From assembly GCF_058153355.1 (NCBI RefSeq), contig NZ_CM177019.1: a stretch of 64,000 nt of DNA. One strand, 5' to 3'. How positions within the stretch are numbered: position 1 is the stretch's first letter; the number at the start of each line of letters is the position of its first letter. Positions 1-43,236 of the stretch are shown here, piece after piece. The notes under the pieces are model-generated. The model worked only from the letters and a program-made list of their open reading frames with translations. It was not told the DNA's origin and did not search any database. The position numbers and the translations under genes are program-made.

Positions 1-373
1 GGCTGGGTAAAGCCATCTTTCAGAAGTTTAAAAATCAGCTCATCCGGCTGAACTGCCGCAGAACGGCCCATCTCCTGAAAAATCGGCGCATAAATACCCA
101 GATTGTCATCCTCGAAGTCATCACGGGAAATACCCACGGTGCCTTCAAACGTTTTATTGGCGATAGAGTAGCCATGCGCTTCCATTTGCTGAATGGTTCG
201 CTTACCCACCCATTCTTTCAGGGTCGGGAATTTACCCAGCCAGCCATAGGTATTACTGCGGGTGGAAGAGTTCACCACCATTGCAATTTTGCTGTACTGC
301 GACGGGGCGTCTTCAAGACCGCCCTGAAAATCCTTACGCCAGGAGGTCATCAGGGCTTTAATGGATGCCGGGG
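1..373 (-). CDS. T: Mu major head subunit T (gp34), N-terminal part only; gene runs off the window edge
   Basis: Reverse-strand translation from ATG at 373 gives MIVTPASIKALMTSWRKDFQGGLEDAPSQYSKIAMVVNSS...; lies directly downstream of I as in Mu. Confidence 0.8.
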
Positions 374-11493: not shown

Positions 11494-11813
11494 TTTGCGG
11501 CCCTCAGAATAAATTCAGGATAAAATTTCAGACTCATTTGCCGTAACACATCCAGTGCAGCAACGGCTGCTGATTTATCGTTGCCATCAGCAATAGCGCG
11601 GAGATTTTCAATAATCCAGTGAGGACTCAGTGACTCAGCAACAATACCGAGTCGGTACGCCATGACCTCATCAATTGCACGGTTATAAGACGGGGCGTAT
11701 ACCGCCGCCACAAAGTTACCGATCACATCTTCAGGAAAACCCGCCGCCGTCAACAACGCTGTCAGTTCCTCGGATTTTGTAAATACGCCATTATTCATTC
11801 TGTTCACCTTCAC
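11490..11813 (-). CDS. Mu semi-essential region hypothetical protein
   Basis: ORF track 107 aa. Confidence 0.55.
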   Translation of the reverse strand: MKVNRMNNGVFTKSEELTALLTAAGFPEDVIGNFVAAVYAPSYNRAIDEVMAYRLGIVAESLSPHWIIENLRAIADGNDKSAAVAALDVLRQMSLKFYPEFILRAAK

Positions 11814-11982
11814 AATTCATGCACGCCGTGTCATCGCCCATATCGCAGTGGTTGCATTTCTGCCCGCCACAATGGGGACACTCTTTCAGATATTCAGGGG
11901 ATTCATTACCGCAGGTCGGGCATTCCTGTTTCACCGTGGTGAATTTCCCCAGCCACGAATACGATGTTTCATTGTTTTCCAT
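11791..11982 (-). CDS. Mu semi-essential region small zinc-ribbon protein
   Basis: Track ORF 11791..12054; internal start MENNETSYSW at 11982 has a GGAGG Shine-Dalgarno; CPTCG...CPHCGGQKCNHC...CMNC cysteine clusters. Confidence 0.5.
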   Translation of the reverse strand: MENNETSYSWLGKFTTVKQECPTCGNESPEYLKECPHCGGQKCNHCDMGDDTACMNCEGEQNE

Positions 11983-12520
11983 TGTTTGCCTCCGCCTGCT
12001 CCAGTGCCATAACTGGTGCGTCAGAACAGTCAAGAATGAGATAGCGCAGTACATGGTCGGTGATATTCCATGCGCTTGAGCTGCAAATAAAACGCCCCAG
12101 CCGGATATCGATATAAGCCATCACAAAACGGGGCATTCCCTGTTTGCACATCTCGTCATCCACTTCTGCAACGATGTGAACGGATTCACAGGTCAGTACG
12201 CCTGTCGCAAACTCTTTTGCCAGCGCGGGGATAGTATTACCTTCCACCCAGGGTAATGAGCGACGCCAGTTGCACCACACCGCATCATCAACGGCAGGCT
12301 GCTCAGTTGCGTTTCGTCTTACAGGCGGCGTCGGACGCGGGCGCGGAACGTCATAAAATCCGTTGCATTCGGTGAGCACTCCGGCATCAACCGCATCCCG
12401 CAGGAAATACACCATTGACGAGGGCAGCATCTTCATTTTTTCAGCCAGAACCCCGCAGGTCAGACGCCCGTAAGCCAGTAATAATGTGCTGACCCCATTC
12501 AGAACTTTTGCATCAATCAC
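11969..12520 (-). CDS. Mu semi-essential region hypothetical protein
   Basis: ORF track 183 aa. Confidence 0.55.
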   Translation of the reverse strand: MIDAKVLNGVSTLLLAYGRLTCGVLAEKMKMLPSSMVYFLRDAVDAGVLTECNGFYDVPRPRPTPPVRRNATEQPAVDDAVWCNWRRSLPWVEGNTIPALAKEFATGVLTCESVHIVAEVDDEMCKQGMPRFVMAYIDIRLGRFICSSSAWNITDHVLRYLILDCSDAPVMALEQAEANNGKQ

Positions 12521-12523
12521 CGG

Positions 12524-13078
12524 TTATTCCTCCGTCAGTGCCACAAATTCAGAATGTTTAATACGCTGGCATTCGGAGGGAACTGGTCCTTTAACCTCAC
12601 CGTCCAGAAGGCGCACCTCAAACAAAATGCCGAATCCATCACGGGTGTGGTGCATCTCCCAGAGCGATTTGAAATCCCACATATTGGGTATGACATCAAC
12701 CCCAAGTTCATTGCACAGCCAGCCCGGAAAATCCGGGTATTTACCGAGCTGATTTTCATAGCCCCGGATAAGCTCCGCGTGTTCCCGGCCTGCTGGTGTT
12801 GTCATATCCGGCATCGCTGCCCATAACTGAATATCACCAATAAAAAGTGTCCTTGATTTAATCTCCCATCCTTCCGGTGGTAAACGGTTAAACCAGACAC
12901 GCGTAACCCTCTCAGGCCCTTTGTCACCAGACAAAAACACACCGCTTGCTTTCACTGATTGCTGTAATGACGCAATAATCTCACCACGCTTAACAGAAAC
13001 CTCTTTCAGCCAGCGAATCGTATAACCGTTAGCGGCTGCGTCACTCAGTTTAAAATAAGCACATGCTTTCATTTTCAT
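12524..13078 (-). CDS. Mu semi-essential region hypothetical protein
   Basis: ORF track 184 aa. Confidence 0.55.
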   Translation of the reverse strand: MKMKACAYFKLSDAAANGYTIRWLKEVSVKRGEIIASLQQSVKASGVFLSGDKGPERVTRVWFNRLPPEGWEIKSRTLFIGDIQLWAAMPDMTTPAGREHAELIRGYENQLGKYPDFPGWLCNELGVDVIPNMWDFKSLWEMHHTRDGFGILFEVRLLDGEVKGPVPSECQRIKHSEFVALTEE

Positions 13079-13169
13079 TCTCTCCGGTTCTGATTAAGGC
13101 GCGAGTCGTCCCCTGACGCATCGCGCCATAATTAAACGAATGTGAATTAATTAAATATTAATGGTGGTA

Positions 13170-13694
13170 TTAAATACCGGCTTCCTGTTCAAACGGAATA
13201 ATGGAAAAATCTTCAATTCCCGATTTAACTGTAATTCCGGCAACACCTGCGACCGCTTTCGGTTCCAGTAAAATCGCTTCCTTGTTGATTTCCTGCTTCG
13301 TGCGAATAAAGCGTTGCAGGCCAAGACGCTCCAGCGTTTCCATCACTGCATCCATACCACGAATACTTACTGATGGTGGACGGACCCGCCACGATACATC
13401 ACCGGTGACAAGATTTGCCGTTTTCACTTTGCCGCCGTTTGTCAGTTCGTCGCGGTTCGCTTCACACCATCCCTGAACGCCTTTTGAAAGGGTTTCAATA
13501 TCGGTTTTAATCGGTGCAATCCGGGCTGCAAATTTCTCCGTAATTTCCGCGATGGCATCATTCATTTCCGTTTCCAGACGTGATGCTTCGCGCTGTAAGT
13601 CCCCGATGCGTTTAATATCGGTAATCACCGCATCGCGGTTTTGTGGCACATAAGCCGCTGCGGCACTTTTGATACGTTTTGCTGGTTTAGCCAT
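13170..13694 (-). CDS. gam: Mu Gam, DNA-end-binding host nuclease inhibitor (Ku-like)
   Basis: ORF track 174 aa, MAKPAKRIKSAAAAYVPQNRDAVITDIKRIGDLQREASRLETEMNDAIAEI... Confidence 0.9.
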   Translation of the reverse strand: MAKPAKRIKSAAAAYVPQNRDAVITDIKRIGDLQREASRLETEMNDAIAEITEKFAARIAPIKTDIETLSKGVQGWCEANRDELTNGGKVKTANLVTGDVSWRVRPPSVSIRGMDAVMETLERLGLQRFIRTKQEINKEAILLEPKAVAGVAGITVKSGIEDFSIIPFEQEAGI

Positions 13695-34692: not shown

Positions 34693-34843
34693 AACTTTGC
34701 CTCAGGCATTAGAAATAGCGCGTTATTGTACACGGATTAATCGCACTACAAAACAGGATCACAAACATCCTCCGCAAACAAGTATTGCAGAGTCCCTTTG
34801 TGATCGCTTTCACGGAGCATAAAAAGGGTTATCCAAAGGTCAT

Positions 34844-34981
34844 TGCACCAATATGGTGCTTAATGTTTCCATTGAAGCACTATATTGGTGCAACATTCAC
34901 ATCATGGTGCAGCCCTTTTGCACGATGTTAAGCATGATAACGCCTTTTAGGGGCAATTTAAAAGTTGGCACAGTTTTCGCT
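34844..34981 (+). promoter_or_regulatory. glnA upstream region: NtrC enhancer sites and sigma54 promoter glnAp2
   Basis: TGCACCAATATGGTGCT at 34844..34860, further GCAC...GGTGCA half-sites, and TTGGCACAGTTTTCGC -24/-12 element at about 34965..34980. Confidence 0.8.
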
Positions 34982-35064
34982 TTATCTTTTTTACGGCGAC
35001 ACGGCCAAAATAATTGCAGATTTCGTTACCACGACGACCATGACCAATCCAGGAGAGTTAAAGT

Positions 35065-36474
35065 ATGTCCGCTGAACACGTACTGACGATGCTGAACGAG
35101 CACGAAGTGAAGTTTGTTGATTTGCGCTTCACCGATACCAAAGGTAAAGAACAGCACGTCACTATCCCTGCTCATCAGGTGAATGCTGAATTCTTCGAAG
35201 AAGGCAAAATGTTTGACGGCTCCTCGATTGGCGGCTGGAAAGGCATTAACGAATCCGACATGGTGCTGATGCCAGACGCATCCACCGCAGTGATTGACCC
35301 GTTCTTCGCGGACTCTACCCTGATTATCCGTTGCGATATCCTTGAACCAGGCACCCTGCAAGGCTATGACCGTGACCCGCGTTCCATCGCGAAGCGCGCT
35401 GAAGATTACCTGCGTTCTACTGGCATTGCCGACACCGTACTGTTCGGGCCAGAACCTGAATTCTTCCTGTTCGATGACATCCGTTTCGGCGCGTCTATCT
35501 CCGGTTCTCATGTTGCCATCGACGATATCGAAGGTGCATGGAACTCCTCCACCAAATATGAAGGTGGTAACAAAGGTCACCGTCCGGCAGTGAAAGGCGG
35601 TTACTTCCCGGTTCCGCCGGTAGACTCTGCTCAGGATATCCGTTCTGAAATGTGTCTGGTGATGGAACAGATGGGCCTGGTAGTTGAAGCCCATCACCAC
35701 GAAGTAGCGACTGCTGGTCAGAACGAAGTGGCAACCCGCTTCAATACCATGACCAAAAAAGCTGACGAAATTCAGATCTACAAATATGTTGTGCACAACG
35801 TGGCGCACCGCTTCGGTAAAACCGCGACCTTTATGCCAAAACCGATGTTCGGTGATAACGGCTCCGGTATGCACTGCCACATGTCACTGTCTAAAAACGG
35901 CGTCAACCTGTTCGCGGGCGACAAATATGCAGGTCTGTCTGAGCAGGCGTTGTACTACATTGGCGGCGTAATCAAACACGCTAAAGCAATTAACGCCCTG
36001 GCAAACCCGACCACCAACTCTTACAAGCGTCTGGTCCCGGGCTACGAAGCACCAGTAATGCTGGCTTACTCTGCGCGTAACCGTTCTGCGTCTATCCGTA
36101 TTCCAGTGGTTTCTTCTCCGAAAGCACGTCGTATCGAAGTACGTTTCCCGGATCCGGCGGCTAACCCGTACCTGTGCTTTGCTGCCCTGCTGATGGCCGG
36201 TCTTGATGGTATCAAGAACAAGATCCACCCAGGCGAAGCCATGGACAAAAACCTGTATGACCTGCCGCCAGAAGAAGCGAAAGAGATCCCACAGGTTGCT
36301 GGTTCTCTGGAAGAAGCACTGAACGAACTGGATCTGGACCGCGAGTTCCTGAAAGCCGGTGGTGTGTTCACTGATGAAGCGATCGATGCGTACATCGCTC
36401 TGCGTCGCGAAGAAAATGACCGCGTGCGTATGACTCCGCATCCGGTAGAGTTTGAGCTGTACTACAGCGTCTAA
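35065..36474 (+). CDS. glnA: Glutamine synthetase
   Basis: ORF track 469 aa, [31 protein letters not shown]... Confidence 0.97.
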
Positions 36475-36562
36475 TAGTTGAAGTTGTACTACCCGGTGCA
36501 AAGAAGGCCGGGATTTAGTTGCCGTGGAAACTTTCAGCCCATCTCTGCATGGGCTTTTTTCT
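36475..36562 (+). ncRNA. glnZ: glnA 3'UTR with terminator; putative GlnZ-type 3'UTR-derived sRNA
   Basis: Hairpin gcccatctctgcatgggc plus T-run at about 36537..36560 directly after the glnA stop; sRNA assignment by position only. Confidence 0.4.
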
Positions 36563-36610
36563 CCGTAACTTCTTTGATGCTTCGCGCTTTTTATCCGTAA
36601 AAAGCTATAA

Positions 36611-36627
36611 TGCACTAAAATGGTGCA
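36611..36627 (+). promoter_or_regulatory. NtrC binding site at the glnL promoter
   Basis: TGCACTAAAATGGTGCA palindrome. Confidence 0.7.
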
Positions 36628-36648
36628 ACCTGTTCAGGAGACTGCTTT

Positions 36649-37698
36649 ATGGCAACAGGCACGCAGCCCGATGCTGGGCAGATCCTCAACTCGCTGATTA
36701 ACAGTATTTTGTTAATTGATGACAACCTGGCGATCCATTACGCCAACCCCGCCGCACAACAACTGCTCGCTCAAAGCTCCCGCAAATTGTTTGGTACACC
36801 GTTACCGGAACTGTTGAGCTACTTCTCATTAAATATCGAGCTGATGCAAGAAAGTCTTGAGGCGGGGCAAGGTTTTACCGATAACGAAGTGACGCTGGTC
36901 ATCGACGGGCGCTCGCATATCCTTTCTGTGACGGCCCAGCGTATGCCGGACGGCATGATCCTGCTGGAGATGGCACCGATGGATAACCAGCGCCGCTTAA
37001 GTCAGGAACAGCTACAGCACGCCCAGCAGGTTGCTGCCCGTGATTTAGTGCGCGGCCTGGCACATGAGATTAAAAATCCGCTTGGCGGTTTACGTGGCGC
37101 GGCCCAGTTGCTCAGCAAAGCATTACCTGACCCGTCACTACTCGAATATACCAAAGTGATTATCGAACAGGCGGACCGGCTGCGAAATCTGGTCGACCGT
37201 CTGTTGGGGCCGCAACTGCCCGGTACGCGCGTTACCGAAAGTATTCACAAAGTGGCTGAACGCGTGGTGACGCTGGTGTCGATGGAACTGCCGGACAACG
37301 TGCGGTTGATTCGTGATTACGACCCCAGCCTGCCGGAACTGGCGCACGACCCGGATCAAATTGAACAGGTATTGCTGAATATTGTGCGCAATGCGCTACA
37401 GGCACTGGGGCCGGAAGGTGGTGAAATCATTCTGCGTACCCGCACCGCGTTTCAACTGACCTTACACGGCGAGCGCTATCGGCTGGCGGCGCGGATTGAT
37501 GTGGAAGATAACGGGCCAGGCATTCCGCCTCATTTGCAGGATACGCTGTTTTACCCGATGGTCAGCGGCCGCGAAGGTGGCACCGGGCTTGGCTTATCCA
37601 TCGCCCGTAATTTGATTGATCAGCATTCAGGCAAAATTGAATTTACCAGTTGGCCAGGTCATACCGAGTTCTCGGTTTACCTGCCTATCAGGAAATAA
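36649..37698 (+). CDS. glnL: Nitrogen regulation sensor kinase NtrB
   Basis: ORF track 349 aa with histidine-kinase H-box (LAHEIKNPL). Confidence 0.95.
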
Positions 37699-39230: not shown

Positions 39231-39341
39231 ATGCTGGAATCAATAATTAATCTGGTATCGAGTGGCGCAGTTGACAGCCACACACCGCAAACTGCCGTTG
39301 CTGCCGTGCTGTGTGCTGCGATGATTGGGCTGTTTAGCTGA
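39231..39341 (+). CDS. yshB: Small membrane protein YshB (36 aa), absent from the ORF track
   Basis: ATG at 39231 after GGGGAGAG; translation MLESIINLVSSGAVDSHTPQTAVAAVLCAAMIGLFS; position between glnG and hemN. Confidence 0.75.
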   Translation: MLESIINLVSSGAVDSHTPQTAVAAVLCAAMIGLFS

Positions 39342-39470
39342 AGCTCGTTGTTTATGCCGGATGCGGAGAAAGTCGTAGGCCTGATAAGACGCGACCAGCG
39401 TCGCATCAGGCATCATGCTCAGATGCCGGATGCAGCGTAAACGCCTTATCCGGCCTACAAAAGCAATAAT
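39342..39470. repeat. REP (repetitive extragenic palindromic) elements
   Basis: gccggatgcgg...cgcatcaggc and cgccttatccggcctac REP-type palindromes. Confidence 0.7.
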
Positions 39471-41641: not shown

Positions 41642-41704
41642 AATGGTTCGTCTTTTAGCCGTTTTATTCAGTATAGATTTGCGGCGGAATCTAACAGAAA
41701 GCAA

Positions 41705-41952
41705 GCAAAGAAAAAAGGCGACAGATTACTCTGTCGCCTTTTTTCCTGACTCATAACCCTTAACGGGTCTTACAATCCTTGCAGGCCGCCAACACACCCT
41801 GTTTTTCCATTAGCCGGAACAATCCGTGTTGATTCCATTTCCGTTTAATTACGTCTCCGGACGTTTGTCTTCCTGACAATCCTCTGTCTTCGCCTCCTGG
41901 CGCTCCTGACCCTCATCCTGAGTCATTGTTCCTGTTAGCGTCCTCGCTCTAT
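41705..41952 (-). ncRNA. csrC: CsrC sRNA (CsrA-sequestering)
   Basis: Minus strand from 41952 reads ATAGAGCGAGGACGCTAACAGGAACAATGACTCAGGATGAGGGTCAGGAGCGCCAGGAGG... with multiple GGA motifs; terminator hairpin at 41711..41744. Confidence 0.85.
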
Positions 41953-42980: not shown

Positions 42981-43089
42981 TAAAAAACGCCCCAGTCATT
43001 ACTGACTGGGGCGGCTAAAATATTCAGCCAAATCCGATTACGTGAAGTAAAAGGTCTGAAAGATAGAACATCTTACCTCTGTACCCTAC
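42981..43089 (-). ncRNA. spf: Spot 42 sRNA
   Basis: Minus strand reads GTAGGGTACAGAGGTAAGATGTTCTATCTTTCAGACC...GCCCCAGTCAGTAATGACTGGGGCGTTTTTTA, the canonical 109-nt Spot 42 with its terminator. Confidence 0.95.
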
Positions 43090-43236
43090 GCGACTAACTT
43101 TACTCTTTTTTGTTCAGTTCAGAAAGCATTTTTTGTAATTTTTTTTCAGTTGTTGCATAGGAATTTCTAATAGCCATCACAAAACGTGACAGCTTATGTT
43201 GCTTACTTACGAAAAAAGGGCATGTTCAGGCGAATC

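Follow-up and report, generated by a model that had tools for sequence, protein, structure and literature searches.

The glnA-glnL intergenic region of an Escherichia coli genome very probably encodes the short form of the small RNA GlnZ

The glnA-glnL locus

The interval studied here, 36475..36648 of the window (the whole 64-kb stretch of DNA that was analysed), is exactly the 174-nt intergenic region between glnA and glnL. The RefSeq gene order around it is typA-glnA-glnL-glnG, and the RefSeq annotation of the window holds no feature in the glnA-glnL gap. Sequence similarity assigns the window to Escherichia coli; the 301 nt around the interval are 100% identical to E. coli 2013C-4282 (NZ_CP027579.1), and the same 301 nt show 95-99% identity to nearly all of 5426 complete E. 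coli genomes. The genes that bound the interval are as follows:

35065..36474, plus strand: glnA coding sequence, its mRNA being the parent of GlnZ; stop codon at 36472..36474
36636..36640, plus strand: Shine-Dalgarno sequence of glnL, AGGAG, preceding the ATG
36649..37698, plus strand: glnL (RefSeq); ATG at 36649..36651

Two open reading frames with TTG starts (36478..36600 and 36519..36701), both of which run through the terminator and the promoter described below, were dismissed as mechanical. Elsewhere in the window, a transposase gene and a truncated coding sequence lie on the minus strand at 11609..13423, between an alpha/beta hydrolase gene and fabY, and the segment 8457..10303, with small unnamed genes and nadS, resembles an accessory islet. 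At the corresponding locus of E. coli AMSHJX01, glnA and the 5' part of its 3'UTR are absent from the junction, and the region of the glnL promoter directly adjoins a truncated clsB; many of the neighbouring genes are frameshifted there, which may reflect a rearrangement or an assembly problem.

Organization of the glnA 3'UTR

[quoted passage not shown] The ends given below for the RNA, and the 85-nt reference length, were taken from PMC8092317 and PMC9731577. The parts of the 3'UTR are:

36475..36560, plus strand: very probably full-length GlnZ of the short O157/Class I/EsrF type, 86 nt, coinciding with the whole glnA 3'UTR (from the alignment with EsrF)
36492..36512, plus strand: 5' hairpin with arms 36492..36497 and 36507..36512 and a 9-nt loop, in the variable region
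36513/36514, plus strand: candidate RNase E site GGGA/UUUAG, matching RN/WUU (the slash marks the cut), from a motif scan
36519..36530, plus strand: seed UUGCCGUGGAAA, identical to the published seed (PMC9731577)
36531..36535, plus strand: U-rich linker CUUUC between seed and terminator, with positions 78-94% conserved
36536..36560, plus strand: intrinsic terminator, with a stem-loop at 36536..36555 and a T-run at 36555..36560 (terminator scan, folding and conservation)
36561..36564, plus strand: CTCC, directly after the T-run and past the 3' end mapped for GlnZ

The terminator scan describes a stem-loop of 7 pairs, 4 of them G-C, with a 6-nt loop and followed by a T tail, much as the earlier note had placed it (a hairpin and T-run at about 36537..36560). 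With an energy of -10.1 kcal/mol (z = -3.65), its fold was equalled by none of 200 shuffles. On the minus strand no T-run follows the reverse complement of the terminator, which is therefore unidirectional. The 5' hairpin folds with -10.6 kcal/mol (z = -2.06 against shuffles). The description of the region after the stop codon as structured thus applies to these two hairpins, the only elements of the 3'UTR that stand out from chance, and not to the 3'UTR as a whole, the fold of which shows no excess structure relative to shuffles (z = -0.67).

The seed begins at position 45 of the UTR and is the sole exact match to UUGCCGUGGAAA in the 64-kb window. The minimum free energy fold of the full 86-nt RNA leaves the first and the last bases of the seed partly paired, and seed bases are unpaired with a mean probability of 0.61. 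The linker that follows probably belongs to an Hfq-binding module. The site at 36513/36514 is considered a candidate for RNase E because of its homology to the 5' end of K-12 GlnZ (UUUUAGUUGCC) and because of the approximately 50-nt GlnZ2 of Salmonella (PMC9731577); a cut at this position would yield a 47-nt short form, 36514..36560.

The window carries a rare allele of the short GlnZ

Three types of glnA 3'UTR, all with the seed, have been described in E. coli by Miyakoshi et al. (PMC9731577): the K-12 type of 197 nt, the O157 type of 85 nt and the O111 type of 230 nt. The short form is the Class I of Walling et al. (bioRxiv 10.1101/2022.04.01.486790), who equated it with EsrF, an RNA whose 85 nt in strain EDL933 were mapped by Jia et al. 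(PMC8092317) from the T that adjoins the glnA stop codon onwards. The O157 form has been seen on Northern blots by all three groups (PMC9731577; bioRxiv 10.1101/2022.04.01.486790; PMC8092317). Moreover, a small RNA from the glnA 3'UTR of EPEC was found in an Hfq RIL-seq study and judged to be a glnZ orthologue (PMC8550237).

The earlier note had suggested a comparison with published GlnZ sequences, for which we used EsrF of EDL933 (85 nt; L007:166-250, minus strand) as the reference. [quoted passage not shown] They align end to end, with 82 of the 85 positions of EsrF identical, no base differing from 36507 through 36560, and one extra base in the window, which accordingly has 86 nt. The differences are a T in place of C at 36497, the extra A at 36500, and a G in place of C at both 36503 and 36506; all four lie within the apex of the 5' hairpin, which is not conserved. 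Relative to EDL933, the stem of this hairpin is reduced from 7 to 6 pairs, including one G-U, and its energy changes from -14.9 to -10.6 kcal/mol; the weaker hairpin could alter the stability or the processing of the RNA. In the spacer after the terminator the window differs from EDL933 by three substitutions (36567, 36569 and 36574).

Neither the REP element nor the O111 insertion is present in the 3'UTR of the window. A 3'UTR type could be assigned to 5421 of the 5426 complete E. coli genomes, as follows:

Short (O157) type: 2857 genomes, the commonest
K-12 type, with the REP insertion: 1571 genomes
O111 type, with an insertion: 993 genomes

The exact allele of the window occurs in 3 of the 5426 genomes, and relatives with one mismatch number fewer than about 64. 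In the O111-type UTR, represented by the APEC strain E. coli O78 E19057 (locus L003, about 212..356), the insertion of about 144 nt lies between the 5' hairpin and the seed; it is flanked by AGGTTCAAA repeats, and parts of it match at most 3 places per genome, so that the insertion may represent a small element, repeated or mobile.

The GlnZ of K-12 (b4836, 194 nt, Class III) has the same seed and flanks (UUUAGUUGCCGUGGAAACUUU), terminator and parent gene, and its validated targets are sucA, glnP and aceE. Its seed, however, lies 7 nt from the 5' end and is followed by an insertion of about 110 nt, containing REP, before the terminator, whereas in the window the seed adjoins the terminator and REP is lacking. 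The seed also adjoins the terminator in GlnZ1 and GlnZ2 of Salmonella (Class II, 185-nt UTR), and the approximately 50-nt GlnZ2 would be the counterpart of the 47-nt product predicted for the window. In contrast, the 5' part of the Salmonella RNA is far longer and unrelated, and an extra G beside its seed abolishes the regulation of aceE; the window has U (36516). A comparable logic is seen in other Hfq small RNAs that RNase E releases from 3'UTRs, namely SroC (from gltI), CpxQ (from cpxP) and SdhX (from sucD), which use the promoter and the terminator of the parent mRNA and act in the same pathway as the protein it encodes (PMC9731577), although these RNAs differ from GlnZ in seeds, targets and parent genes.

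Conservation of the seed and the terminator across the Enterobacterales

Conservation was assessed by a sampling that was blind to the seed, in which loci were retrieved solely by means of the C-terminal codons of GlnA and the stop codon, from at least 120 species genomes. Among the matches listed, the exact 12-nt seed was found within 400 nt of the glnA stop codon in 73 of 88 assessable Enterobacterales, with a further nine carrying a seed with one mismatch, and in none of 24 genomes that clearly lie outside the order (Cellvibrio, Vibrio, Aeromonas, Marinobacter and the like). The genera with the exact seed include Escherichia, Salmonella, Citrobacter, Enterobacter, Pantoea, Erwinia, Serratia, Yersinia, Pectobacterium, Dickeya, Edwardsiella and Hafnia. 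Again among the matches listed, six Enterobacterales lack a recognisable seed in the 400 nt that follow glnA, possibly as a result of lineage-specific losses: Enterobacter sp. BIGb0383, three Rosenbergiella species and two insect symbionts (L023, L026, L036, L130, L035 and L133).

The distance from the stop codon to the seed varies from 2 to 321 nt, and the length of the UTR from 52 to 364 nt, among the matches listed. In 79 loci, again among the matches listed, the seed is followed after 3-6 nt by AGCCCATC, a loop and GATGGGCT, by five or six T residues, and then by CTCC. Farther than 8 nt upstream of the seed the information content is about 0 bits, against about 2 bits over the seed and the terminator; in this 79-locus subset the columns of the seed are ascertained, unlike those of the flanks and the terminator. 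Across genera, conservation in the region of the 5' hairpin amounts to about 0 bits. What emerges from the survey is a clean picture of a conserved cassette of seed and terminator set in UTRs of very different lengths.

The terminator helix is 99.1% paired over 69 distinct sequences, in which four of its eight pairs are invariant and just two single compensatory events occur; because so few pairs covary and so many do not change, the helix is conserved mainly as sequence. The apical pair is a C-C mismatch in E. coli, whereas in most genera it is a C-G pair closing a tetraloop. Conservation extends past the mapped end of the RNA into CTCC (36561..36564), the positions of which are 74-99% conserved across the Enterobacterales; the spacer after it is variable.

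Complementarity to the leaders of sucA, glnP and aceE

Targets were searched for with the segment 36514..36535 against the leaders of strain 2013C-4282, in sliding windows of 30 nt and with shuffled segments as controls. RNAduplex on whole intergenic target regions had proved non-discriminating, since 8-18% of the shuffled segments equalled the real one through long internal loops, and it was replaced by the sliding windows. The sites found, with coordinates relative to the ATG, are:

sucA, -48..-33: -20.4 kcal/mol, 1% of shuffled segments as good
glnP, -22..-11: -18.4 kcal/mol, 4.5% of shuffled segments as good
aceE, -105..-91: -20.7 kcal/mol, 0 of 200 shuffled segments as good

The site in glnP agrees with the published one, just upstream of the Shine-Dalgarno sequence, and the site in aceE includes C-99, a position validated by compensatory mutation. 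Moreover, the window keeps U, and not G, at 36516 beside the seed, the position that decides the regulation of aceE, and its GlnZ is predicted to retain the pairing with aceE. The pairing with sucA and aceE has been validated by compensatory mutations for the GlnZ of Salmonella and of K-12 (PMC9731577). EsrF of O157 is induced by nitrogen starvation and represses glnP, sucA and aceE, and its pairing with glnP has been confirmed by compensatory mutants (bioRxiv 10.1101/2022.04.01.486790). The window thus has the elements of the RNA, their conservation, and complementarity to the targets within the same genome.

Promoters of glnA and glnL and the proposed pathway

The regulatory sites around glnA and in the remainder of the interval are:

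34844..34860, plus strand: NtrC enhancer box 1 of glnAp2, 1 mismatch
34876..34892, plus strand: NtrC enhancer box 2 of glnAp2, 2 mismatches
34966..34981, plus strand: sigma-54-type -24/-12 element TGGCAC-N5-TCGCT, attributed by position to glnAp2
36606..36611, plus strand: -10 element of the sigma-70 promoter glnLp, a perfect TATAAT, conserved across genera
36611..36627, plus strand: NtrC operator TGCACTAAAATGGTGCA, 1 mismatch, conserved across genera

The consensus TGCACC-N4-TGGTGCA was used in the search for NtrC sites throughout the 64-kb window. With at most one mismatch there are two sites, the glnLp box and one upstream of glnA, amounting to four strand-matches against 0.11 expected, a count reached in none of 100 shuffles; with at most two mismatches, only the two glnAp2 boxes and the glnLp box are found. 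The two NtrC boxes precede the -24/-12 element by about 140 and 108 bp, and the glnA ATG lies 84 nt beyond it. Matches to the sigma-54 consensus are not in excess in the window (23 found, 26.7 expected), and the element is assigned to glnAp2 because of its position relative to the NtrC boxes rather than the number of matches. By this arrangement of sites, the parent transcript of glnA and GlnZ would be driven by the NtrC- and sigma-54-dependent promoter glnAp2. A match to the Rfam small RNA ES222 (RF02755; 133 bits) is seen at 34774..34881 on the minus strand, in the typA-glnA intergenic region and opposite to glnA; it overlaps the glnAp2 box at 34844..34860 and part of that at 34876..34892, so that a small RNA and the enhancer share DNA.

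The earlier note had also pointed to an NtrC palindrome after the terminator, at the glnL promoter, and this is the box at 36611..36627, the operator of glnLp. The TATAAT and the NtrC box have one base in common, and the operator overlaps both the -10 element and the start region of glnLp, the identity of which is given in PMC9731577, citing Ueno-Nishio 1984. Together, the TATAAT and the NtrC box are glnLp, which is repressed by NtrC; they regulate glnLG and not GlnZ. GlnZ is not driven by this box, which follows the terminator, but derives from the glnA transcript by way of glnAp2, upstream of glnA.

For K-12, GlnZ is lost in mutants of ntrC and of the glnA promoter. [quoted passage not shown] For the window, expression, processing, Hfq dependence and target repression would be as in this literature on near-identical alleles. 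Under nitrogen limitation, phosphorylated NtrC at 34844..34892 would activate glnAp2 (34966..34981), and the glnA transcript would stop at the intrinsic terminator (36536..36560). RNase E, with Hfq, would free the 3'UTR near the stop codon and probably also cut GGGA/UUUAG (36513/36514). The single-stranded seed (36519..36530) of the freed RNA would then base-pair with the sucA, glnP and aceE leaders and repress these genes, with less consumption of 2-oxoglutarate and less uptake of glutamine while glutamine synthetase is being produced. The remaining 88 nt of the interval contain the sigma-70 promoter of glnL, where NtrC acts via the operator 36611..36627 to repress its own basal promoter.

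Discussion

At the level of sequence, all the features of the published short-form GlnZ are present in the interval, and we are highly confident that 36475..36560 is GlnZ, the Hfq-dependent small RNA of the glnA 3'UTR, in its short O157/Class I/EsrF form. The rare hairpin allele of the window is expected to behave like the alleles that have been characterised. The RNA ties nitrogen assimilation to carbon flux, in that the mRNA for glutamine synthetase also releases an RNA that lowers 2-oxoglutarate dehydrogenase, pyruvate dehydrogenase and glutamine import. GlnZ has been published by three laboratories (2021-2022) and is annotated in K-12, so that its occurrence here adds no new biology. The interval consists of an already described small RNA and a known promoter and operator, and the sole local novelty is the rare allele at the hairpin apex, in the part that is not conserved.

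A different account of the same 85-nt RNA has been given by Jia et al. (2021; PMC8092317), for whom EsrF is a primary transcript that starts from its own promoter in the 3' part of glnA, is under repression by NtrC, responds to high ammonium by induction and activates flhB via the motif GGGAUUUAG, thereby promoting motility and virulence. This account draws on 5' and 3' RACE, resistance to terminator exonuclease, levels that were unchanged in the absence of the glnA promoter and binding to the flhB leader in gel shifts (PMC8092317). In the window the motif GGGAUUUAG is intact (36510..36518), and upstream of the predicted 5' end of K-12 GlnZ213 there is a weak -10-like sequence, TAGAGT (36446..36451). 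We nevertheless consider this account unlikely to describe the RNA of the window. Two independent laboratories saw O157 GlnZ/EsrF induced by nitrogen limitation and not by high ammonium, and in K-12 the RNA disappears without the glnA promoter or ntrC, as noted above, while a PglnZ-lacZ fusion is nearly silent. The motif that would pair with flhB, moreover, falls where the UTR shows little conservation between genera. A scan for sigma-70 promoters on the plus strand from 34700 to 37000 returned no promoter-like site, but it also misses glnLp, whose poor -35 element gave no match, and it therefore weighs little either way on a promoter belonging to EsrF itself.

The terminator is strong and conserved, its deletion slightly lowers GlnA in K-12, and the UTR as a whole is not unusually structured, all of which would suit a plain terminator or mRNA-stabilising hairpin for glnA, the short RNA being left over from decay, inert and without a role in trans. 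Such a terminator alone would not need the single-stranded 12-mer which, 3-6 nt before it, is exact in 73 of the 88 Enterobacterales (among the matches listed) while other parts of the UTR are unconserved; nor does an inert product agree with the complementary sites that the same genome has in the leaders of three targets or with the compensatory mutations that confirm the pairing of O157 EsrF with glnP and of Salmonella and K-12 GlnZ with sucA and aceE. We regard this reading as extremely unlikely. The element could also act mainly in cis, as an attenuator that sets the read-through from glnA into glnLG, and hence the dosage of NtrBC, the conserved sequence serving that end. The terminator has been described as being of moderate strength and stands between glnA and glnLG, and CTCC is conserved past the 3' end of the small RNA. 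However, levels of NtrC in K-12 are essentially unchanged by deletion of GlnZ, by deletion of the terminator, or when the UTR is swapped for that of O157 or O111, and the complementarity of the seed to unlinked targets would be left unexplained; a role mainly in cis is accordingly very unlikely.

Set against these, GlnZ remains the reading we favour, with one possible extension. Because the stem is conserved as sequence across the order and CTCC is conserved beyond the 3' end of the RNA, the module of seed and terminator may have more than its described roles, such as a sequence-specific partner or a part in glnALG read-through. Separately, the rare hairpin-apex allele could change the processing or the stability of GlnZ. 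We think it distinctly unlikely that either applies.

GlnZ and neighbouring small RNAs in sequence databases

The K-12 RefSeq annotation has the ncRNA glnZ (b4836) at the homologous place; GlnZ is unannotated by RefSeq in the strain of the window and in all three of the sequence types checked outside K-12. Rfam 15 contains no model for GlnZ, and the sequences of the window, EDL933 and K-12 give only sub-threshold matches, to Ysr49 or, in K-12, to the REP-like naRNA4. The match of the window to Ysr49 (RF02766) reaches 28.8 bits (E = 0.006), under the gathering threshold of 95 bits, because only the 3' part with seed and terminator aligns; the score for EDL933 is 34.1 bits. In Yersinia similis, Ysr49 scores 151 bits over 124 nt (L115, 5303..5426), of which the first is separated from the glnA stop codon by one base; seed and terminator are those of GlnZ. 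Two further Yersinia species, in which the UTR is short, fall below the threshold. By its position, its seed and its terminator, Ysr49 is the Yersinia orthologue of GlnZ, a link for which we found no paper in the literature. The RNA of the window is an orthologue by position and seed, but it falls outside the family in Rfam's definition.

Other known RNAs and repeats were met in the window. The small RNA CsrC (278 bits) lies at 41699..41952 on the minus strand; RefSeq places on top of it a frameshifted pseudogene of a "hypothetical protein" (41760..41926), which is probably a spurious coding-sequence call. A REP-type naRNA4 element occupies 39378..39455 on the minus strand, between yshB (39231..39341) and hemN, and the small RNA Spot 42 (123 bits) is found at 42981..43099, also on the minus strand.
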